Virus record (IMG/VR): IMGVR_UViG_2926471356_000005 | Coordinates: 1-64,000 of that record | DNA: 64,000 bases | Direction: 5' to 3' (one strand) | DNA from: a virus | Taxonomy: Duplodnaviria; Caudoviricetes | Made by a program: the position numbers and the translations under genes | In this document: positions 41,971-58,756 of the stretch, piece by piece | Layout of the letters: each line of letters starts with the position of its first letter | Numbering within the stretch: position 1 is the first letter of the stretch | Notes under the pieces: model-generated | What the model saw: the letters and a program-made list of their open reading frames with translations, nothing else | Told to the model about the DNA's origin: nothing | Database searches by the model: none

Positions 41971-42543
41971 TTAACGATTCTTGATTTTGAAAGCGGGGCG
42001 AACGCCAAAAGAGTACGAAGCGCCGTCGTTGTCCGCATAACCGCTGCCGTTGACAAAGGAGAAGTAAGTAGCGGATTCTCTGACCTTGTTCATCAGCCAG
42101 TACCACTGTAAGTTCTCATACTTGCTGCCATCGAACGCCATACGGTTTCTGCGCTTCTTCATAGGCTCCCACTGCTTCACATACGGGCTTTCGTACTCAC
42201 CATAGTAGTTCTCTCCGAAAATCTCTTTCTCAGTCGGCAGACGGAGCAGATCACCGTTGTCAAACGGAGCCATCATAGCCTTGAGTTCTGCCGGGAAGAG
42301 ATTCAGAATCTCACCATTCAGCTTCTTATGCAGGTCACTCTCTTCGTAACCTCCTTCGTTGGTACGGGTGCTGTTCATTGGGCACTCACCAGGCAGGCAA
42401 TCAACCAGGCAGAAAATCATGCCGTCCTCTTCCTGCTGCATAGCCATAGCCTGCGCCTTCACACCGTCCGTGAGTTTGACCTCGATAATATCTCCAACCT
42501 TAAAAGTATCAACGTCAGACTTAATCATTCTTTTTACTTTCAT
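41971..42543 (-). CDS. DGR target 2: stand-alone DUF6273/CLec-like protein in early operon
   Basis: FKVGDII..LRLPTEKEIFG..WYWL..SATYFSFVNGSGYADNDGASYSFGVRPAF; ATGA-coupled start at 42543. Confidence 0.8.
   Translation of the reverse strand: MKVKRMIKSDVDTFKVGDIIEVKLTDGVKAQAMAMQQEEDGMIFCLVDCLPGECPMNSTRTNEGGYEESDLHKKLNGEILNLFPAELKAMMAPFDNGDLLRLPTEKEIFGENYYGEYESPYVKQWEPMKKRRNRMAFDGSKYENLQWYWLMNKVRESATYFSFVNGSGYADNDGASYSFGVRPAFKIKNR
41989..42075 (-). repeat. DGR variable region VR2
   Basis: 75/87 identical to VR1. Confidence 0.85.
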
Positions 42544-42689
42544 TGTGTTTTCCTCCACTTGTACGGCTTACCGTATTTTTCTTGATACCAGATTTCAAAC
42601 TTCTTGCGGTTTTCCTCATCTTTGAAGTATTCCTTTACCCTGTCAGCAAGGACAGAACAAAGTGCGCTTCCTTCTAATGTGCGAAGCAT
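42540..42689 (-). CDS. small hypothetical protein (49 aa, not in ORF track)
   Basis: MLRTLEGSALCSVLADRVKEYFKDEENRKKFEIWYQEKYGKPYKWRKTQ, coupled at both ends. Confidence 0.6.
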   Translation of the reverse strand: MLRTLEGSALCSVLADRVKEYFKDEENRKKFEIWYQEKYGKPYKWRKTQ

Positions 42690-43162: not shown

Positions 43163-43510
43163 ATGGATACCTTAGAACGCATTTTGGAGTTACAAAAACA
43201 GTCGGGATTAACAGTAAAAGCCCTTGAAGCTGCTACAGGTATATCTAATGGCAGTTTTAGCAAATGGAAAAAGGGAACATATGCGCCCAGTGCCGAAGCT
43301 GTACTAAGACTGGCTAAATATTTTCACGTTTCTACTGACTATCTATTCTGTTTATCCGATTCACCTTATCCGAAAGTAGAGATTTCCCTAACCGAAGAAG
43401 AGCAATTACTGCTTGACGCATTTCGTTCCGCTTCCACGCAAGGCAGATTCAATATTATTACCACCTGTATGTGCGAGAAGCGAAAAGGGGGCAACGAAAG
43501 TGCCGGGTAA
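43163..43510 (+). CDS. CI-like XRE repressor
   Basis: LTVKALEAATGISNGSFSKWKKG..LAKYFHVSTDYL. Confidence 0.85.
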   Translation: MDTLERILELQKQSGLTVKALEAATGISNGSFSKWKKGTYAPSAEAVLRLAKYFHVSTDYLFCLSDSPYPKVEISLTEEEQLLLDAFRSASTQGRFNIITTCMCEKRKGGNESAG

Positions 43511-43537
43511 TTGATTTTATAGAATGGAGGAAGAACC

Positions 43538-45124
43538 ATGTATGAGGATATAAAAACAGCCTGCCTATACGTTAGATTCTCAAGCCATAATCAGACTGAG
43601 CAATCTATTGAAGGGCAGACCCGTGTTTGCCGTGATTTCTGCAAGCGGCATAATATTAGAATTGTAGAGATATATGCTGACAGAGCCACGTCTGCCAGTA
43701 AAGACATTGAGAAGAGAGTCCAGTTCCTCAAGATGATAAAATACTCTGAGAAGGGCTTGTTTGACGCTGTAATCGTATACAAACTTGACCGCTTCGCCCG
43801 TTCCCGGTATGACTCAGCCACCTACAAATATCGCTTGAAGCGTAACGGGGTACAGCTTATTTCAGCCACAGAAAATATCAGCAATGACCCAGAAGGTATC
43901 ATTCTGGAATCAGTGCTTGAAGGTATGGCTGAGTTCTACAGTGCCGAACTCTCCCAGAAAATTAACCGTGGTATGAGAGAGTCAGCCTATAAGCATAACT
44001 CTATAGGAGGGGCAGTCCCTCTGGGATACAAGATTGAAGATAAAAAACTGGTGATAGACCCTAAAACGGCTCCCCTTGTGAAAGAAGCCTTTGAGAAATA
44101 TGCGGGCGGAGAAACGGTTGCTGAAATCTGCCGTCAATTTAATGCCCGTGGGTACAAGACCTCAAAGGGTACAGCTTTCGGAAAGAGTTCTTTCACCAAA
44201 ATATTTCGTAATGAGAGATACATCGGAGTCTACACCTTCCATGACTACCGAGCAGAGAACGCCATACCTGCTATTATCGACAAAGAACTCTGGGATAGGG
44301 TGCAACTTAGAGTCGGTAAGATTAAAAATGCACCTGCCCGGAACAAAGCAAAAGTGGTCTACTTACTTAGTGGTAAAATCTTCTGCGGACATTGTGGTAG
44401 TAAAATGAACGGAAATTGCAATGCGGGAAATTACTATTACTATCAGTGTTACGGAAAGAAGAACGGCAATGTTGATTGCAATAAAAAGAATATCCGTAAG
44501 GAGTTCATAGAAAGACTGGTTGCCCAAGACGCACTATCGCTCCTTACAGATGAATATATAGAACAGATTGCTTCTATTGCCTGTGAAAAGAATCAAAATG
44601 AGATTGAACTGGATTCAGCCCTTCCAACTATTCGTGACCGTATCCACCAGGTAGACGTATCCCTCAACAACCTTCTGAAAGCTATTGAGTCGGGATCAGC
44701 CCCAGATATGCTTGTAAAGCGTATGGGTGAATTAGAGAAAGAAAAGAAAGACCTGCAAGCACAGGCTAAGAAAGAATCTGAGGATATTGTTGAACTGGAC
44801 AAAGCCCAGGTTATTTATTGGTTAGAACAGTTTCGGGGCGGCAGTATTGAAGATGAAGAGTTTTGCCGTATGCTCATTGACCTTTTCGTAAACTCCGTCA
44901 CTGTATGGGATGAAGATGACGATACCTATAAGGTCACAGTGGCTTATAATCTAACCTCTTTACCGACAAAAACGTACCGCCTAAATAAAGACGGCACGTT
45001 GTCGGATTTCGCTTCCAATGCACCAGCTTTGAGGGCAGGAATGAATATATCTCCCGACTTTGCAGCTTCCCGCTGCTTATCCTTGACGATTTTGGAATGG
45101 AACGGGGAACGGAATACGGCTTAG
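43538..45124 (+). CDS. large serine integrase, reading through the att junction
   Basis: YVRFSS, DRFAR, FCGHCG/YQC zinc ribbon; last 32 aa encoded by flanking DNA. Confidence 0.92.
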   Translation: MYEDIKTACLYVRFSSHNQTEQSIEGQTRVCRDFCKRHNIRIVEIYADRATSASKDIEKRVQFLKMIKYSEKGLFDAVIVYKLDRFARSRYDSATYKYRLKRNGVQLISATENISNDPEGIILESVLEGMAEFYSAELSQKINRGMRESAYKHNSIGGAVPLGYKIEDKKLVIDPKTAPLVKEAFEKYAGGETVAEICRQFNARGYKTSKGTAFGKSSFTKIFRNERYIGVYTFHDYRAENAIPAIIDKELWDRVQLRVGKIKNAPARNKAKVVYLLSGKIFCGHCGSKMNGNCNAGNYYYYQCYGKKNGNVDCNKKNIRKEFIERLVAQDALSLLTDEYIEQIASIACEKNQNEIELDSALPTIRDRIHQVDVSLNNLLKAIESGSAPDMLVKRMGELEKEKKDLQAQAKKESEDIVELDKAQVIYWLEQFRGGSIEDEEFCRMLIDLFVNSVTVWDEDDDTYKVTVAYNLTSLPTKTYRLNKDGTLSDFASNAPALRAGMNISPDFAASRCLSLTILEWNGERNTA

Positions 45125-49156: not shown

Positions 49157-49454
49157 GGTATTGTGAGTAGTATTTAGATGATTAGACAGTTCATATATAC
49201 AAGCGTAATTTCCCCCGGTGGTGGTCGGGCTTTTTTTGATGTGTCAATGACCGTCGGATTTTGTCGATATGGTATGTGCTTCATGGCGGCTACCTCCTTT
49301 AGCCGCCGCTTTTAACAGTGATACCGCGTCATTTCTTGAGAAGATAAAAAGAAACGGCGGCTTTGATTTTTCAAAGCTGCTGCGGAAATCAAAGAACGAC
49401 AAGCAACAGTTCTGATTTTGCTCCAATATGGTTATTGGGGGCACAAATTAAATC

Positions 49455-49502
49455 AAAAAAGAGCCGATAACAGCAGTATTTCAAACTGCATATTATCGGC
49501 TC
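49455..49502 (-). terminator. terminator after methyltransferase
   Basis: GAGCCGATAA...TTATCGGCTC plus U-tract. Confidence 0.7.
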
Positions 49503-49533
49503 TGCGTCTGTGCGTCTGGCTCTTTTAATTAAA

Positions 49534-50523
49534 TTATTTTTGTTGTTTTTTGGCTTTATTATATGTATTAGCTAACTGTCCACAAGCTGCTTTAATCTCT
49601 CTACCATGAGAAACTCTCATGGTAACTTCAAGTCCTGTTTGCTCTAATTGATGTTTGAACGCAACCATTTCTTGTTTTTGTGGTGCTCTAATTTTTGAAT
49701 TACTCGTCGGGTTGTATTGCAGCACGTTAATCATAACATTTTTGCCCTTAAACCATTTTGCAAGTTGCCTTATATCTGAGGAACGGTCATTTATACCTGG
49801 TAAAAGCAAATACGCAAATACCACTTTTCGATTATGCCTTTGTGAATAGGACAATGCTTGCTTAACAACATCTTCAATAGCGTACATGTGCATATGAGGA
49901 ATGATACAGTTTCTCACAGCCTGTGTTGCTGCATGTAAAGATATTGTCAACTGAATTTTTAGATGTTCTTCGCGCAATTTTTTTAATTGATTAACTGGAC
50001 CAACTGTTGATATGGTAATGCCGTCGGTTGGAAAGTTAAGTCCATTTCTATCTCGAAGAATATGGATTGCTGCAATCAAGTTGTCGTAATTGAATAAAGG
50101 TTCTCCCATTCCCATAAAAACGATACGATTTACTTTTTGACGTATCAATATGACCTGCTGCACAATTTCAGACGGTGTTAGATTACGAACGAAACCATTG
50201 CGTCCGGACTCACAAAAAATACAGCCAACAGAACAACCAACTTGCGTACTTACGCAAACAGTCCCACCATCTCGCCGTTTAATAAAAACCGTTTCGATAT
50301 ACCTGTTGTCTTTCAATTCATAAACATACTTTTCAGTATCGCTACTTTTATAGACTTTTTTTGTTGATATTGATAGATTTTTTTTGTGAAATGGCTGTTT
50401 ATACAATTTCGCATATAAGGCTCTTGCTTTATCCTCTCCAATTACTTCCGACATTTCTTTGTAAGTAAATCCGTATGGGTCATTCAATATTTCCGTAGGT
50501 GTACTTTTAGGTAAGTGTTTCAT
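49534..50523 (-). CDS. RlmN/Cfr-family radical SAM RNA methyltransferase
   Basis: CVSTQVGCSVGCIFC, MGMGEP, SLH, AACGQL; AT-rich cargo. Confidence 0.9.
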   Translation of the reverse strand: MKHLPKSTPTEILNDPYGFTYKEMSEVIGEDKARALYAKLYKQPFHKKNLSISTKKVYKSSDTEKYVYELKDNRYIETVFIKRRDGGTVCVSTQVGCSVGCIFCESGRNGFVRNLTPSEIVQQVILIRQKVNRIVFMGMGEPLFNYDNLIAAIHILRDRNGLNFPTDGITISTVGPVNQLKKLREEHLKIQLTISLHAATQAVRNCIIPHMHMYAIEDVVKQALSYSQRHNRKVVFAYLLLPGINDRSSDIRQLAKWFKGKNVMINVLQYNPTSNSKIRAPQKQEMVAFKHQLEQTGLEVTMRVSHGREIKAACGQLANTYNKAKKQQK

Positions 50524-50545
50524 TTAATATCCTTCCTTTTCAAAA

Positions 50546-50725
50546 TTAAAAAGTTTGTTTTTCAGAGTTTTTGATTATGATTTCTAATTTTTCAACATCA
50601 ACGATATGTGTTAATTTACATTTAGGGCAGAAAAGAGGAAAATTTCTTAATACCGTATTATAAAATACTTGAACCCTCGTCTTTCCGTTACAAATTGGAC
50701 ATTTTATCCAATATTTTTCAAGCAT
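50546..50725 (-). CDS. cysteine-rich KTR domain protein
   Basis: WIKCPICNGKTR..NFPLFCPKCK. Confidence 0.85.
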   Translation of the reverse strand: MLEKYWIKCPICNGKTRVQVFYNTVLRNFPLFCPKCKLTHIVDVEKLEIIIKNSEKQTF

Positions 50726-50744
50726 AATATTTCTCCTTTTGCGC

Positions 50745-50787
50745 AAAAAAATACAGGTCAATTCTCAACATGAGCATTGACCTGCAT
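50745..50787 (-). terminator. leader terminator (attenuator)
   Basis: ATGCAGGTCAAT...ATTGACCTGTAT then T-tract just before KTR RBS. Confidence 0.75.
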
Positions 50788-50933
50788 TTATACATATAAC
50801 ACTACAACAAAATTAAGGCATAGTTTTTATACTATGTCTATACATCGTTAGTTTTGTTGTATAGCATACGCAAAATAAGCATGACAAAAAAGCCCATATT
50901 GAAAATGGGAAAAATCTTTTTTAATTTCAATGC

Positions 50934-50960
50934 TTATCGAATACGCATGCTATGTAACAT
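50934..50960 (-). CDS. leader peptide MLHSMRIR
   Basis: AAGGGGGG 8 nt upstream; resembles ErmDL MTHSMRLR. Confidence 0.7.
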   Translation of the reverse strand: MLHSMRIR

Positions 50961-50984
50961 AAACATTTCCCCCCTTTTAATAAT

Positions 50985-51013
50985 ACTATACAAAAAAAGC
51001 GGCTAGTTGTCAA
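50985..51013 (-). promoter_or_regulatory. sigma-A promoter of the leader-KTR-methyltransferase operon
   Basis: TTGACA-17-TATAGT. Confidence 0.75.
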
Positions 51014-51107
51014 CATATACATATGAATTATTTTAGTCAACTGATAGAACAGTGTAGACATATCCAAGAGGAAAGGTGAACAGTAAAATGTAATAGGATG
51101 AATAATT

Positions 51108-51461
51108 ATGGCAAAAAGACCAGTACCGAAATACGACTTCAAGGCTTTTGGGGCAGCGATAAAGGCGGCGCGGACAGGGCGCAAGGAGAGCCGCAAGAAA
51201 GTAAGCGACGAAATGTTTATCTCGCCGCGTTACCTTGCGAACATTGAGAACAAGGGGCAGCACCCAAGTTTACAGATTTTCTTTGAGCTTATGCTCCGCT
51301 ACAATATATCCGTAGACCAGTTCCTTTTGGAAACGCCGCCGGAGAAGAACACGCAGCGGCGGCAGCTCGACGCGCTTCTTGACGGTATGAGCGATACAGG
51401 CATACGGATTGTGACCGCAACGGCAAAAGAGATTTCCGAAGTCGAAAAAGAGGGCGAATAG
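51108..51461 (+). CDS. XRE HTH regulator (Tn916 Orf9-like)
   Basis: YDFKAFGAAIK..ISPRYLANIENKGQHPS. Confidence 0.8.
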   Translation: MAKRPVPKYDFKAFGAAIKAARTGRKESRKKVSDEMFISPRYLANIENKGQHPSLQIFFELMLRYNISVDQFLLETPPEKNTQRRQLDALLDGMSDTGIRIVTATAKEISEVEKEGE

Positions 51462-55387: not shown

Positions 55388-58300
55388 TCAGCTCCTTTCC
55401 AAGTCCTGTGACTTCTGCTTTGCGTTTTTCTTCTGCGCCTTTTCCTTGTCGGCTCTAAGCTGCGCCCGGATAGAGGGCTTTTTTTCCGGCTTCGCTCCCT
55501 TGCCGCGCTCCTTGTCGGCTTTGACAGCGTTAGCCAGGTCAACAAGGGAAATCTGCTCGCCCGCCTTTACCTTTGCTTCCAGTTCGTCAACGGTGGGGGT
55601 GTTGTTGATGATACCGTCAATCATGTTTCCGTTCTGCTCTATGGTCTGCTCGGCGGTTTTCAAGGGATTGTCCCGCTGCGCCTGTTCTGCGGCAACGGCA
55701 AACGCCCGCGTCCCATTCCCCATAATCAGATACTTTCCGTCGTCCGACTGGTGGTGAAAGCCATATCCGGCGGCTTCTATCTGCTCCCGGCTCATAGCGG
55801 TTACATGGAAAGTCCCTCTCGGTGTTTTGACAGTTTCGCCCGTTTCCAAGTCGTCCGGGGTAAGCTGCTTCTGCTCCTGTAAAAACTCCGGCACTTCCCG
55901 GAAACCTACACTGTCAACGAAATGCGCCGCGTCCTGTCCGTCCTGATGAAGCACTACCACGTCCGAAACGGAAAGGCTGTGTCCCTTAAAATCTTTGGGG
56001 TGGTCGATATTGAAACGGGTGTAAATATCTTCAAGGGAAGTTTCCGGCGCAAGGGGCGCGGAATAGACAAGCTCATAGTTCGCCCTGTCAACCACATTTC
56101 CCGCCGCCTGCAGGCGGTCGTATGGCTCAAAGCGGAAATCCCTTGTTTCGTCCCCGCCTTTTATCTGGTAAATGGAAAAGGTGTCTTTGTCCTGTCCGGC
56201 GGTCTGCGCCGTTTCCTGTGCCTTTGCGTAAAGCTGCTTTACGTCGCCCTCGGTCAGCCCGCCGCTTTTGAGCTGCCCCATAAGCTCGCGGCATTTCTCC
56301 GGCGTTCCCGTATAAAGCACGTCGCCCATTTTCGCCCGCCCGTTCTCCTGTGTCACATAGGCTTGCAAGAGGTGGCTGTTTTCCGGGCTGTCGCCGTAAG
56401 GGTTCCGGCGCATCTTGTAAATCGTTTCCGGGGTAAAGGCTTCTTTCGGGGCTGCGCCCGCCTTTTCCTGTGCGCCGGATTTTCCCGGTGCGGCTGCTTC
56501 CGGCTTCTCTTTCCCGGCTGTATCTGCCTTTGCCGGGGCTTCCGGCTGCGGCTGTTCTTTCGGGGCTGCCTTTTCCTCTCTGGTGGGCTGCTCCTGTCCG
56601 GCGGTCTGCTCCTTGTCCTGTGCCTTTTGCAGCTCCGCAAGATTTTCGTCTATGGAATTGATAATCTCGGCGGCTGCGCTGCGTATCGTTTCAAGGGAGC
56701 TTTTCAGCTCGGACAGCTCCCGCCCGCTGCTCCACCCGGCGACATAGCCGAAAGAGTAGTCCGACGTGTCAAGCCCGTAATGTTGGCAGACAGTATAGGC
56801 GACGCTTTCCGCTTCGACTTCGCGGGTGCGGCGGTCAACGTGGGGCTGCTGCTCGTCCTTTGGCGCGTTGAGGTCAATGTCGTGCAGCTTCGCATGGGCG
56901 ATTTCGTGAATGGCGGTCTTTAAGGTCTGTAATTCGCTCATGCCCTCGTTGATAGCAATGCGCTTGTCCTCCAAGTGGTAGTAGCCATGAGAGCCGCCCT
57001 CGATATTCTCAAAGGCGATAGGAACGGGGGAAGTCTTTTCAAGGGCTGCGAAAAAATCCTTGTAGCGGTCAACGTCGCCCGTCAGCTCGTCAACGGCAAT
57101 ATCCGGCAGCTCCTTTCCCTCGGTCTGGGAAACGTCAAAGACGGATACCACCTTGTAGGCGGGTATGGTGACTTCCTTTTCCTCGGTGACGGGCTTTCCA
57201 TCCTTGCCGATTATGGGCTTCTGTGTGTGCGGGTCGATTTTCTGCATTTCCTGTTTGATTTTATAGGGCGACGGGGCAATGATTTTAATTCCCTTTTGCC
57301 CTTTCATCACGTTTCGCTCAAAGTTATTCTTCCAAGCGGAAAAGCCCGCCACAAGGGAAGCGTCCGGCTTCTGCATGGCGATAAGGACGGTGTTTCGGAA
57401 GCTGTAATTATGGAATTTTGACATGACTTTCAGATATTCCTTGTAACGCTCGCTGTCAAAGAGTTCCGCAATACCCTGTTCCAGACGGTCGGTAATCTCT
57501 TTTAATTTCTCGGCGGGCTTCTCGCTCGTCAGCACGATAGGGATAACCGGGCGCGGCTCCTGTGGCTGCTCTGCGGTCTGCGCGGTTCTCTGCCCCGGCG
57601 CGGCTGCGTCAAAATCTGCTTTTTCCGGGTCGGGGCGTGACCGCTGCGGGGGCTGCGGCGTTACCCGGTATTCCTGTGGAACGTCGCGCCCGTCGTACCA
57701 TTCTGTAAAGGTGTTGCGGTTGTTGTAGATATAGCCCTTTTCGGTAAACATACCGTCGTCGTTAATGGAAGCGTCGCGCCCGTATTCCTCATACATGAAA
57801 TACTTTTTCGCTTCTTCGGGCAGTTCGGGTTCTTCCAGTTCATCAACCAGATAACGCCCGTATTCTTCTTCATTGTGGACGGACGGATAAATCCAGTAGC
57901 AGTCAAGGTTTTGTGCAAGGTTGATGATGTCCTGTAAGCTGTCGGCATGGTCGCCGTATTCAATGGCTGCAATGAATTTCTCCCGGTCGTCGTCAAACTG
58001 CATTTCCAAGAGCTTCCCTAAATAGTTCAGCTCGTCGGGGTGGGAATACTCGCTTAAATGTTCCGCCAAGCCGGGGATAGGGGATTGAAATTCTGTGAAA
58101 TGCCATTCCTCGTAATGCTTGAAGTCAATCCCGATACGGTCAAAGACTTCTTTCAGATGTTCGGCAGTCGTGGGGAACGTCACCCATTCGCCCGCGGGTC
58201 TGCCCTCGGTGTACTTCCCAAGATTGGAAAGATAGCCGCTTAAAATCGGTTCTGCCATTTGTTCGCTCCTTTCTTTTTCAATCATGCGGTGCATAAGCTC

Positions 58301-58756
58301 AAAATCCTCAATGCTCATGCTCCCGTCAAATACATAGGGGTTAAAATCCTCTCCGTCCCGGTAGGGCTTTTCGGAAAAGGGAAGCCCCGCTTCATGGGCG
58401 GCTGCCCTCGCTTCCTCGATAACCTCCGGGGGAAGCCTGTCGTCATGCGCCCCGATAAAACCGTCAATGTCGTTCATGCTGTTTTCGTAGTGGTAGCGCA
58501 CTCCGGCGGTCAGCTCGTCAAGGCTCATGTCCTCGCCTAAATGCCCGCAGTAATAGCCGTTTAGGATAACGGCGGCGGGGTCGGTGCTTTTGATTTCCTC
58601 TAACCGGCTCCTGTCCTCCGGGTAGAGGGTGTCGTCCATATCAAGATGAAAATATTCCGCGTTCCATGAACGCCCCTGTTTCCAGAACGCCACCCATGCG
58701 ATACCGTCCCTAAGCTCGTCTTGATAGTCCTTTACGGTGTCCCGTAAACTTGCCAT
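55388..58756 (-). CDS. polyvalent antirestriction protein (ArdA + ArdC-N + metallopeptidase + YodL + DUF4316)
   Basis: NLGKYTEG..GEWVTFP; FHNYSFRN; HEIAH; HSLSVSDVV; NMIDGIINN. Confidence 0.8.
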   Translation of the reverse strand: MASLRDTVKDYQDELRDGIAWVAFWKQGRSWNAEYFHLDMDDTLYPEDRSRLEEIKSTDPAAVILNGYYCGHLGEDMSLDELTAGVRYHYENSMNDIDGFIGAHDDRLPPEVIEEARAAAHEAGLPFSEKPYRDGEDFNPYVFDGSMSIEDFELMHRMIEKERSEQMAEPILSGYLSNLGKYTEGRPAGEWVTFPTTAEHLKEVFDRIGIDFKHYEEWHFTEFQSPIPGLAEHLSEYSHPDELNYLGKLLEMQFDDDREKFIAAIEYGDHADSLQDIINLAQNLDCYWIYPSVHNEEEYGRYLVDELEEPELPEEAKKYFMYEEYGRDASINDDGMFTEKGYIYNNRNTFTEWYDGRDVPQEYRVTPQPPQRSRPDPEKADFDAAAPGQRTAQTAEQPQEPRPVIPIVLTSEKPAEKLKEITDRLEQGIAELFDSERYKEYLKVMSKFHNYSFRNTVLIAMQKPDASLVAGFSAWKNNFERNVMKGQKGIKIIAPSPYKIKQEMQKIDPHTQKPIIGKDGKPVTEEKEVTIPAYKVVSVFDVSQTEGKELPDIAVDELTGDVDRYKDFFAALEKTSPVPIAFENIEGGSHGYYHLEDKRIAINEGMSELQTLKTAIHEIAHAKLHDIDLNAPKDEQQPHVDRRTREVEAESVAYTVCQHYGLDTSDYSFGYVAGWSSGRELSELKSSLETIRSAAAEIINSIDENLAELQKAQDKEQTAGQEQPTREEKAAPKEQPQPEAPAKADTAGKEKPEAAAPGKSGAQEKAGAAPKEAFTPETIYKMRRNPYGDSPENSHLLQAYVTQENGRAKMGDVLYTGTPEKCRELMGQLKSGGLTEGDVKQLYAKAQETAQTAGQDKDTFSIYQIKGGDETRDFRFEPYDRLQAAGNVVDRANYELVYSAPLAPETSLEDIYTRFNIDHPKDFKGHSLSVSDVVVLHQDGQDAAHFVDSVGFREVPEFLQEQKQLTPDDLETGETVKTPRGTFHVTAMSREQIEAAGYGFHHQSDDGKYLIMGNGTRAFAVAAEQAQRDNPLKTAEQTIEQNGNMIDGIINNTPTVDELEAKVKAGEQISLVDLANAVKADKERGKGAKPEKKPSIRAQLRADKEKAQKKNAKQKSQDLERS

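Follow-up and report, generated by a model that had tools for sequence, protein, structure and literature searches.

Introduction

The superfamily of radical S-adenosylmethionine (SAM) methyltransferases to which RlmN and Cfr, modifiers of A2503 in 23S ribosomal RNA (rRNA), belong has recently gained a new member with MrmA, an RlmN-type enzyme which is carried by Tn6105, within Tn6110 and Tn7806, in C. difficile ribotype 176 and which has been described as a lineage distinct from RlmN and Cfr (PMC11983580, published in 2025). In an E. coli delta-tolC strain, MrmA raised the minimum inhibitory concentration (MIC) of erythromycin from 2 to 512-1024 ug/mL, a 512-fold rise being cited, and that of pristinamycin IA from 64-128 to 1024, while the MICs of tylosin, pristinamycin IIA, clindamycin, tiamulin, chloramphenicol and linezolid are given as unchanged; the phenotype is thus resistance to 14-membered macrolides and streptogramin B, high for erythromycin and moderate for streptogramin B (PMC11983580). 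Here we report the analysis of an mrmA-like gene preceded by a putative attenuator leader, on the minus strand of a 64,000-nt stretch of viral-record DNA (hereafter the window; positions 1 to 64,000 of IMGVR_UViG_2926471356_000005).

Regarding the leader, the closest described systems are those of macrolide resistance genes regulated by short arrest peptides. The peptide ErmDL starts with MTHSMRLR and stalls the ribosome at codon 7, Leu7 then occupying the P site and Arg8 the A site; stalling depends critically on Ser4 and Met5 in the case of erythromycin and on the R-x-R motif in the case of telithromycin (PMC8298421). The leader peptide of mef(E)/mel, Mef(E)L/Msr(A)L, reads MTASMRLR, and for this system a leader-peptide-dependent, macrolide-inducible and Rho-independent transcription attenuator has been shown experimentally (PMC4335068). 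Moreover, regions upstream of mef(A) match the Rfam family RF02862 (PMC13613805), whose entry is 'Enterococcus sRNA_1300', sRNA_1300 being an abundant 230-nt RNA of a genomic island in E. faecium Aus0004 (PMC5593968).

We propose, with a probability that we put at about 0.75, that the locus in the window is a three-part operon (leader, KTR open reading frame and mrmA allele), carried as cargo of an integrative and conjugative element (ICE) and expressed under ribosome-mediated transcription attenuation, with stalling, switch, inducer spectrum and activity of the allele as its predicted components. The gene is a known one and the leader belongs, or nearly belongs, to a known attenuator family, while their combination was not found in print. 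Indeed, the words 'leader' and 'attenuat' have 0 occurrences in the available text of the two papers PMC11983580 and PMC12409861, and the combination was not found in the literature on MrmA, on RlmN-like genes with Tn6105 or Tn6110 and on radical SAM enzymes with macrolide leaders, with subscription journals, figures and supplements lying outside the search.

Organization and transcription of the operon

The features of the operon and of its surroundings are collected in Table 1. Most of this layout had been read from the letters in the original prediction, which listed a TTGACA-17-TATAGT promoter, a strong Shine-Dalgarno (SD) sequence preceding an upstream open reading frame (uORF) encoding MLHSMRIR*, a segment complementary to this uORF (50860-50885), an alternative partner at about 50780-50812, a terminator (50745-50787), a Cys-rich KTR gene and a radical SAM gene, all within AT-rich cargo. 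Each of these elements was recovered: the complementary segment (segment 2) pairs with codons 3-9 of the uORF in the minimum free energy (MFE) fold, the alternative partner corresponds to the 3' strand of helix C together with the start of the terminator, and the GC content over 49500-50999 is 0.28-0.37 against 0.43-0.58 in the flanks on either side.

Table 1. Features of the operon, of its leader RNA and of the neighbouring backbone genes (positions in the window)
Feature	Position	Strand	Basis or remark
XRE-type helix-turn-helix (HTH) regulator, divergent, upstream edge of cargo slot	51108..51461	+	Pfam HTH_3, DBD_HTH
Sigma-70-type promoter TTGACA-17-TATAGT	51013..50985	-	11/12 consensus positions
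G-rich SD	50974-50969	-	ahead of uORF
uORF MLHSMRIR*, 8 codons + stop	50960-50934	-	ATG TTA CAT AGC ATG CGT ATT CGA TAA
Helix A: uORF codons 3-9 (50953-50929) with segment 2 (50885-50861)	50953..50861	-	MFE fold, -34.8 kcal/mol
T1 hairpin + U tract, at helix A tip	50909-50893	-	terminator scan; unlisted in the original prediction
Antiterminator outer pairing	50902-50878 with T2 5' arm + loop 50785-50764	-	-18.9 kcal/mol
Helix C, enclosed by antiterminator	50872-50852 with 50814-50791	-	MFE of nascent transcript
Central hairpin, enclosed by antiterminator	50838-50819	-	MFE of nascent transcript
T2 intrinsic terminator (putative attenuator), 14-bp stem + U tract	50789-50743	-	-22.1 kcal/mol
Cys-rich KTR zinc-ribbon ORF, 59 aa	50725-50546	-	PF14205, E 5.4e-21
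mrmA-like radical SAM methyltransferase ORF, 329 aa	50523-49534	-	Pfam/NCBIfam profiles, tree
Operon terminator, hairpin + U tract	49502-49455	-	96-nt stretch -30.7 kcal/mol, z = -6.18
Sigma-70 region 4 protein	48998-48558	-	Pfam, NCBIfam
HTH_16 protein	48583-48317	-	Pfam, NCBIfam
Large serine recombinase	47607-45895	-	Pfam, NCBIfam

Three lineages of the leader were compared, namely the window type (57 full-length copies, 17 distinct sequences), the mrmA type (L005, L252 and others) and a lineage at 75% identity (L165-L167, from Sedimentibacter, Aminipila and a Firmicutes metagenome-assembled genome, MAG). The promoter is the top-scoring of 12 promoter-like sites over 49300-51300, shuffled sequences giving 7.0 +/- 2.6 sites of at least 9/12, and the same -35/-10 arrangement is present in L005 and in L165-167.

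Transcription of the locus can be followed in 14 RNA-labelled runs from several studies, which cover the stretch as contigs from which strand, level and terminated leader are not visible. In one of them (X1), a single 1419-nt contig equals 50968-49550 without mismatching letters, the depth is zero over 50974-51097 as well as over 49300-49547, and another contig begins at 51104, at the divergent HTH gene; in a second one (X7), a 1450-nt contig corresponds to 50965-49500. The ends of both contigs fit a start a few bases past the -10 box and a stop at the hairpin of 49502-49455, and the KTR ORF and the methyltransferase gene, which lie on one RNA contig in both runs, are co-transcribed.

The leader peptide

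The uORF encodes MLHSMRIR* in the window type as in the mrmA type, and MLHSIRIRK* in the 75% lineage, and the codons that differ between lineages at positions 2 (TTA/TTG), 6 (CGT/CGC), 7 (ATT/ATC) and 8 (CGA/AGA) are all synonymous. Six of its eight residues (M1, H3, S4, M5, R6 and R8) are those of ErmDL, and the peptide has the +X+ motif of arrest peptides (R/K-X-R/K) at the stall site in the context of Ser4 and Met5, so that by analogy it is predicted to stall the ribosome when Ile7 occupies the P site and Arg8 the A site. The start given for ErmDL in the original prediction, MTHSMRLR, agrees with the published peptide (PMC8298421), and the description of the leader as ErmDL-like holds for these six residues, but the nearest leader is the 8-codon Mef(E)L/Msr type of RF02862 and not that of ermD itself. 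In ErmDL and Erm(K)L the stall motif likewise occupies codons 6-8, and erm(K), whose leader likewise opens with MTHSMRLR, is also subject to transcription attenuation, through two terminators (PMC4335068), T1 and T2 being both terminator-like here; ErmDL, however, has 14 codons whereas the uORF of the window ends directly after Arg8, and the erm(D)/erm(K) gene encodes an N6-dimethylase of A2058 whereas a radical SAM gene lies downstream here, the comparison being made at the level of the peptide. Of note, a variant uORF, MLHSMHIR, occurs in a Coriobacteriaceae MAG (L163, 2038-2280), in which the change of Arg6 to His breaks the R-x-R motif.

A leader RNA of the RF02862 type

In an Rfam scan, positions 50744-50955 of the window (minus strand) matched RF02862 over the full model (1-231) with 44.3 bits (E 6e-9). 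Sister leaders reach 49.5 bits (L005, mrmA type) and 50.1 bits (G134, window leader type), both above the gathering score of 48.8 bits, while L165 and L167 of the 75% lineage score 41.9 and 43.5 bits. The consensus of the family opens with the codons T-A-S-M-R-L-R-stop, that is, with the Mef(E)L peptide, and its whole layout is found in the window: an R-x-R-stop uORF, a long helix, a central hairpin, a terminator and a macrolide-resistance gene directly downstream, T2 aligning to the terminal stem and U tract of the model. The mef(E)/mel (mef(A)/msr(D)) leader and that of the window thus share, by covariance model, one RNA family with the same succession of helix, central hairpin and terminator, and both have a short, SD-preceded uORF ending in R-x-R-stop, MTASMRLR there and MLHSMRIR here. 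They differ in what they precede, since the mef leader drives a major facilitator superfamily pump and an ABC-F protein and the leader of the window stands ahead of a KTR ORF and a radical SAM methyltransferase. The same leader RNA family is reused ahead of an efflux pump and ahead of a radical SAM enzyme.

RF02862 matched in three of 151 genomes from the order to which the window belongs: the window's own genome, a second one with another leader-KTR-mrmA copy, and a third one (G063, 80.8 bits) in which it carries the uORF MYSVRLR* and lies directly upstream of a 406-aa Mef(A), scored at 771.5 bits where the cut-off is 675. When the viral collection was scanned with the uORF pattern, six loci were obtained, all of the two known leader types. 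A blastn search of the leader against plasmids gave two records only (Monoglobus and Subdoligranulum) and linked no other gene to the leader; both records look like further copies of the window leader, the Monoglobus locus being the one that was inspected. More distant members of the enzyme family, at 62-72% identity (L245, L247, L250, L256, L261 and L008), gave no RF02862 leader, which confines the leader to the subclade with at least 75% identity. Since in L165-L167 it lies directly ahead of the methyltransferase gene, with no KTR ORF in between, it is with the enzyme gene that the leader is associated, KTR being either inserted or a dispensable passenger.

A predicted RNA switch

The 266-nt leader folds at -74.3 kcal/mol, compared with -51.9 +/- 4.4 kcal/mol for 200 dinucleotide shuffles (z = -5.08), none of the 200 being as low. 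Two mutually exclusive arrangements can be drawn within it. In the first one, helix A sequesters most of the uORF and leaves T2 free to form; in the second one, an antiterminator, whose 5' strand comprises the loop and 3' arm of T1, the U tract and the start of segment 2, captures the 5' arm and loop of T2 and encloses helix C and the central hairpin. We suggest that they would be used as follows. In the absence of drug, the eight codons of MLHSMRIR* would be translated and the ribosome released, the uORF RNA would pair with segment 2 to give helix A, T2 would form, and transcription would end ahead of the KTR ORF. A macrolide-bound ribosome would instead stop at Ile7 (P site) and Arg8 (A site), through an R-x-R stall as in ErmDL and Mef(E)L, and would block helix A; the 3' side of T1, the U tract and the start of segment 2 could then pair with the 5' arm and loop of T2 before its 3' arm emerges, and the antiterminator so formed would let RNA polymerase read on into KTR and mrmA. 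It would follow that mrmA is probably under drug-inducible control.

This scheme is consistent with folds of the nascent transcript, cut just before the 3' arm of T2 and with 31 nt masked as the cover of a ribosome that has codon 7 in its P site: all three leader lineages give the antiterminator as the MFE fold of this cut and uORF-masked transcript, and the mef(A) leader likewise adopts the antiterminator topology in its nascent fold. Covariation was counted in a 13-row alignment, with structures derived from one of the aligned sequences. For the antiterminator set, 93.9% of the cells are paired, against 35-46% with slid partners; three pairs have changed on both sides (91:230 from A-U to G-C, 120:202 from U-A to A-U and 124:197 from C-G to U-A), and the covariation score exceeds those of all 500 shuffles. 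For helix A with T2, 94.2% of the cells are paired, against 36-49% when slid, with one double change (42:120, from G-U to U-A), and column 120 hence covaries with both of its mutually exclusive partners. T1 was considered as the regulated terminator and rejected, since it lies beyond the reach of a ribosome held at codon 7 and since the 75% lineage has lost the T1 U tract; we rather take T1 for the hairpin at the tip of helix A, a pause site being another possibility.

Several observations nonetheless weigh against attenuation as proposed here. Regarding the peptide, the 75% lineage has Ile5, whereas Met5 matters for erythromycin stalling by ErmDL. The leader of the window, at 44.3 bits, is 4.5 bits short of the RF02862 gathering score and thus below the threshold of membership. 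The covariation signal comes from three lineages only, and the numbers of double-change pairs are not above those of shuffles, which reach them in 258/500 and 391/500 cases. Energetically, the outer pairing of the antiterminator is weaker than T2 (-18.9 against -22.1 kcal/mol), and the uORF-masked MFE fold of the full-length leader retains T2, which is melted neither in the window type nor in the mrmA type; the switch must therefore rest on co-transcriptional kinetics. For the window type, the MFE fold of the unmasked nascent transcript also gives the antiterminator, so that the 'off' state depends on helix A forming first. The X1 and X7 contigs traverse T2, which means that read-through transcripts exist, in samples whose drug exposure is not known. 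Finally, the allele of the window differs from the tested MrmA at about 14% of positions.

It could also be that the leader acts mainly on translation or on mRNA stability, as in ermC and ermB, rather than by premature termination; the stalled ribosome would then uncover a ribosome-binding site or make the transcript more stable. Most erm leaders act translationally according to review statements and Mef(E)L also influences mRNA stability (PMC4335068), and the RNA contigs that span T2 would fit this scenario as well. We nevertheless consider it decidedly unlikely: T2 has the canonical form of hairpin and U tract and ends ahead of the SD of KTR, this SD is unpaired in the MFE fold, the homologous mef(E)/mel leader has been shown to attenuate transcription (PMC4335068), and it is T2 itself that natural variants repeatedly delete.

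Even less probable is that the leader transcript, of about 235 nt, is chiefly a trans-acting small RNA whose place ahead of mrmA would be secondary. This idea draws on sRNA_1300, the abundant 230-nt RNA of E. faecium Aus0004 (PMC5593968), and on the suggestion that products of premature termination may act in trans (PMC13613805). The leader RNA has, however, a conserved, SD-preceded uORF of the arrest type under purifying selection, and its inspected copies always lie directly upstream of mrmA or mef(A), in three of three matches among the 151 genomes and in six of six loci of the viral collection. No trans target is known for a leader of the sRNA_1300 type, and roles in cis and in trans would be compatible. 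The name 'sRNA_1300' would in this sense hide the most likely nature of the RNA, an attenuator leader.

The methyltransferase, an mrmA allele

The protein encoded in the window is 85.6% identical over 327 aa to the product of the L005 gene and 85-86% identical to the cluster representative P0013. In L005, L006, L007 and several metagenome loci, the two gene ends are exact matches to the gene-specific parts of the two cloning primers published for mrmA. In the nomenclature of macrolide-lincosamide-streptogramin (MLS) resistance genes the line is drawn at 80% identity, and the gene of the window is, as judged by its sequence, an allele of mrmA at about 86% identity. Like MrmA, which belongs to the same family and subclade, it encodes a mobile enzyme of 327-329 aa that exists beside a chromosomal rlmN, and the mrmA-type loci inspected for this have the KTR ORF and the MLHSMRIR leader upstream, as in the window.

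Membership of the RlmN and Cfr families proper was assessed with their profiles. The score against TIGR00048 (RlmN) is 273 bits, below the cut-off of 290, and covers only profile positions 62-347 of 355; the first ~60 positions are unmatched, the N-terminal region of the protein being divergent and shortened. The Cfr models are further away, with 197.2 bits against a cut-off of 530 for NF000424, 194 against 468 for NF011024 and 190.5 against 550 for TIGR04432. In PADLOC, the enzyme had no match and KTR alone had one, which was marginal. A tree was computed from 38 proteins, comprising 15 members of the family, Cfr, Cfr(C) and Cfr(D) from plasmid records, the RlmN of the window's own genome, a Bacillaceae RlmN and 18 RlmNs picked from a set of 80 RlmN loci. 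The 15 MrmA-family rows form one clade with a Shimodaira-Hasegawa-like approximate likelihood ratio (SH-aLRT) support of 100 and a stem of 1.99 changes per site, within which the protein of the window falls into subclades of 3 rows (98, with the mrmA type) and of 6 rows (96); Cfr, Cfr(C) and Cfr(D) form a separate clade (100), and the RlmNs also stand apart.

RlmN and Cfr use a CX3CX2C motif for their cluster and two conserved cysteines for methyl transfer. The corresponding residues C90, C97, C101, C104 and C314 are present without exception in the 14 family members that were aligned, and the solved RlmN and Cfr chains have the same cysteines at these places. Cfr, Cfr(C), Cfr(D) and RlmN, at 32-35% identity, thus share with the protein of the window the radical SAM fold, the CX3CX2C motif and the two catalytic cysteines, but they belong to separate clades, and MrmA, the homologue of the window protein, has another resistance spectrum (PMC11983580). 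The motifs QVGC and MGMGEP occur both in the window protein and in the solved RlmN (6fz6), where the solved Cfr (9p0p) has QCGC and MGMGEA at the aligned places, which bears out the RlmN-type motifs put forward by the original prediction. A canonical, full-length RlmN (399.7 bits) is encoded on another contig of the window's genome, and all five carrier genomes checked (the window's and four others) have a canonical RlmN above the TIGR00048 cut-off.

These results fit the mobile rRNA modifier distinct from classical Cfr that had been postulated, as the gene is ICE cargo, its product falls in a separate clade and below the Cfr and RlmN cut-offs, and it comes in addition to rlmN, while the antibiotic induction postulated with it agrees with a leader from the RNA family of the macrolide-inducible mef/msr attenuator; what changes is that this enzyme already has a name, mrmA. 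The phylogeny against RlmN and Cfr, which had been put forward as a check, places it in this separate clade. A Cfr-like spectrum linked to A2503, as had been implied, is unlikely because the published MrmA phenotype is limited to 14-membered macrolides and streptogramin B, with chloramphenicol, linezolid, clindamycin, tiamulin and tylosin unaffected (PMC11983580); its presumed reaction is the C-methylation of an adenine in 23S rRNA that is not the Cfr site. That it would be a Cfr-like A2503 C8 methylase or a redundant RlmN, with resistance of the PhLOPSA type or none and the leader as a leftover, agrees with its place in the RlmN/Cfr superfamily, its full set of catalytic cysteines and the label 'RlmN' that the annotation pipeline PGAP gives to close copies, but is highly improbable in view of the profile scores (273 versus 290 for RlmN, 190-197 versus 468-550 for Cfr, with the N-terminal 60 profile positions unmatched), of the long-branch clade, of the canonical RlmN already present in the genome and of the 86%-identical MrmA, which raises erythromycin resistance 512-fold with no change for phenicols, oxazolidinones, lincosamides or pleuromutilins (PMC11983580).

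The KTR open reading frame

The KTR ORF of the window is the sole copy in its genome. It is partly deleted in several relatives and absent in L165-167, and cloned mrmA works without it (PMC11983580). A literature search on the KTR domain found no function. The co-transcribed zinc ribbon could conceivably assist the methyltransferase, whose N-terminus is shortened.

Of note, a 16-nt deletion between KTR and the methyltransferase gene (window 50523-50545) is present in 17 of the 80 loci described in the next section, including L004 and L091, all among the 55 loci with an intact leader, as well as in the X7 RNA contig (at 50538). It takes away the KTR stop codon, KTR then ending at a TAA which shares bases with the ATG of the following gene, an arrangement which may allow translational coupling.

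Distribution and loss of the leader among relatives

Relatives were collected by an alignment-based scan of species-representative genomes, and all counts on relatives rest on its best 80 loci, of which 71 could be assessed, 7 having too little upstream sequence and 2 no recognisable gene start. The proteins of these 80 loci are 97-100% identical to that of the window and come from Lachnospiraceae, Oscillospiraceae, Eubacterium, Megasphaera, Collinsella, Olsenella, Slackia and various MAGs; moreover, the exact protein of the window is recorded on 1000 contigs or more and belongs to a 90% cluster of 2429 member sequences. Because the best 80 loci are 97-100% identical across families and the protein occurs on at least 1000 contigs, gut commensals are a large reservoir of this allele.

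Promoter, uORF, T1, segment 2 and T2 are retained in 55 of the 71 assessable loci. In the other 16, T2 and/or the leader have been lost by deletion or replacement, T2 being deleted or replaced in 15 of them. The lesions are diverse: T2 alone is deleted in L126, T2 with the 5' end of KTR in L117 and L159, and the stretch from segment 2 through KTR in L160-L162, where the -35 box is also replaced; the replaced part runs from the promoter through the 5' arm of T2 in L156, covers the promoter and the uORF start in L152, and takes the leader up to various points in KTR in L085, L089, L092, L097, L099, L135, L150 and L157. In addition, L251 has lost the uORF stop together with a deletion and is T2-less, and L333 has an insertion of ~212 nt in the place of T2. 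Faecalicatena faecalis has one intact copy (L134) and one deleted copy (L159).

In constitutive erm genes, mutations of the 5' regulatory region prevent the attenuator from forming (PMC4335068), and the repeated, independent loss of the terminator seen here resembles this situation, although recombination of the cargo without selection would also yield some T2-less variants. About a fifth of the natural copies have lost the predicted attenuator, as in constitutive erm variants, while elsewhere the gene would probably be silent until a macrolide is present, so that phenotypic screens without induction may under-call mrmA. The gene mrmA was recognised only in 2025, close copies are labelled as the housekeeping 'RlmN' by PGAP, and AMRFinderPlus failed to identify mrmA in the isolates of PMC12409861. 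The present assignment should be useful for resistance surveillance and annotation, the mechanism itself being unsurprising.

Mobile-element surroundings

The operon is, from the genes around it, cargo between two parts of an ICE backbone. On the side of the divergent HTH gene, the backbone encodes MobC/NikA, a relaxase, a Cys-rich VLP protein, TTRAP, an ArdA polyprotein, topoisomerase III and CD1107-like and CHAP proteins; on the other side lies the module of sigma, HTH and serine recombinase genes (Table 1). The Monoglobus copy, 98.8% identical, has its gene order annotated alike and its methyltransferase gene named rlmN by PGAP, and in L084 the divergent HTH neighbour and the order of sigma, HTH and recombinase genes are annotated alike. 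MrmA itself is carried by the 15.8-kb mobilisable Tn6105 of C. difficile (PMC3158075), the carrier here being the cargo slot of a relaxase-bearing ICE.

The operon is co-oriented with the sigma, HTH and serine-recombinase module of the ICE and points into it. In Tn916, a tet(M) leader-peptide attenuator is associated with the orf7/orf8 regulatory module, and tetracycline exposure is held to mobilise the element. There as here, a leader-attenuated resistance gene (putatively so in the window) lies upstream of a sigma-like gene, an HTH gene and a recombinase gene and is read in the same direction as they are; the drug, the resistance gene and the type of recombinase (serine here) differ, and a strong terminator separates the resistance gene from the sigma gene in the window. 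Macrolide-induced transcription leaking past the operon terminator could switch on excision and transfer of the ICE. We regard this as unlikely, since the strong terminator and the zero depth of X1 beyond it both speak against leakage into the module, neither having been seen under induction; if true, resistance would be induced and the ICE mobilised through gut communities by one and the same exposure to the drug.

Further genes were noted around the element. Just outside the recombinase end of the ICE lie a second HTH gene with a large serine recombinase gene (43163-45124, plus strand) and a gene for a DUF6273 protein (41971-42558), which may belong to another integrated element abutting the ICE. 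Within the ICE, 55388-58756 encodes a polyvalent protein of 1122 aa with LPD15, ArdA, ArdC-N, M78-like peptidase, YodL and DUF4316 domains. Four short contigs (L093, L095, L118 and L123) all start at the edge of the cargo formed by promoter and uORF, 441-450 nt upstream of the gene, which suggests that assemblies break where the cargo meets variable backbones.

Minor observations on related loci

Outside the loci with a leader, the mrmA-type gene of Segatella copri (L007, 3001-3981; Bacteroidota) has neither leader nor KTR. Everything upstream of its ribosome-binding site is replaced by a stretch coding for a protein-kinase N-terminus, and its product (cluster P0012) is a 418-aa fusion of a kinase fragment and a radical SAM enzyme (PF00069 and PF04055), with one member on 75 contigs. 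The distant members of the family, at 50-72% identity (L245, L247, L250, L256, L261, L008, P0075 and P0114), are without leader, and two types among them follow a small XRE-like HTH gene; P0075 and P0114 have long C-terminal tails rich in Lys and Arg. A genome scan with P0075 found no close relative, the scan being swamped by the generic radical SAM peptide pattern. An Acutalibacter copy is located in GC-rich chromosomal DNA, in a genome that also has a canonical RlmN, behind a gene which we take to be pgsA-like (phospholipid synthesis). Finally, the Merdibacter locus has a pemK RNA motif at 5421-5501 of L005, ~1.4 kb downstream of mrmA; at 49 bits, this match to RF02913 exceeds the gathering score of 34.8.

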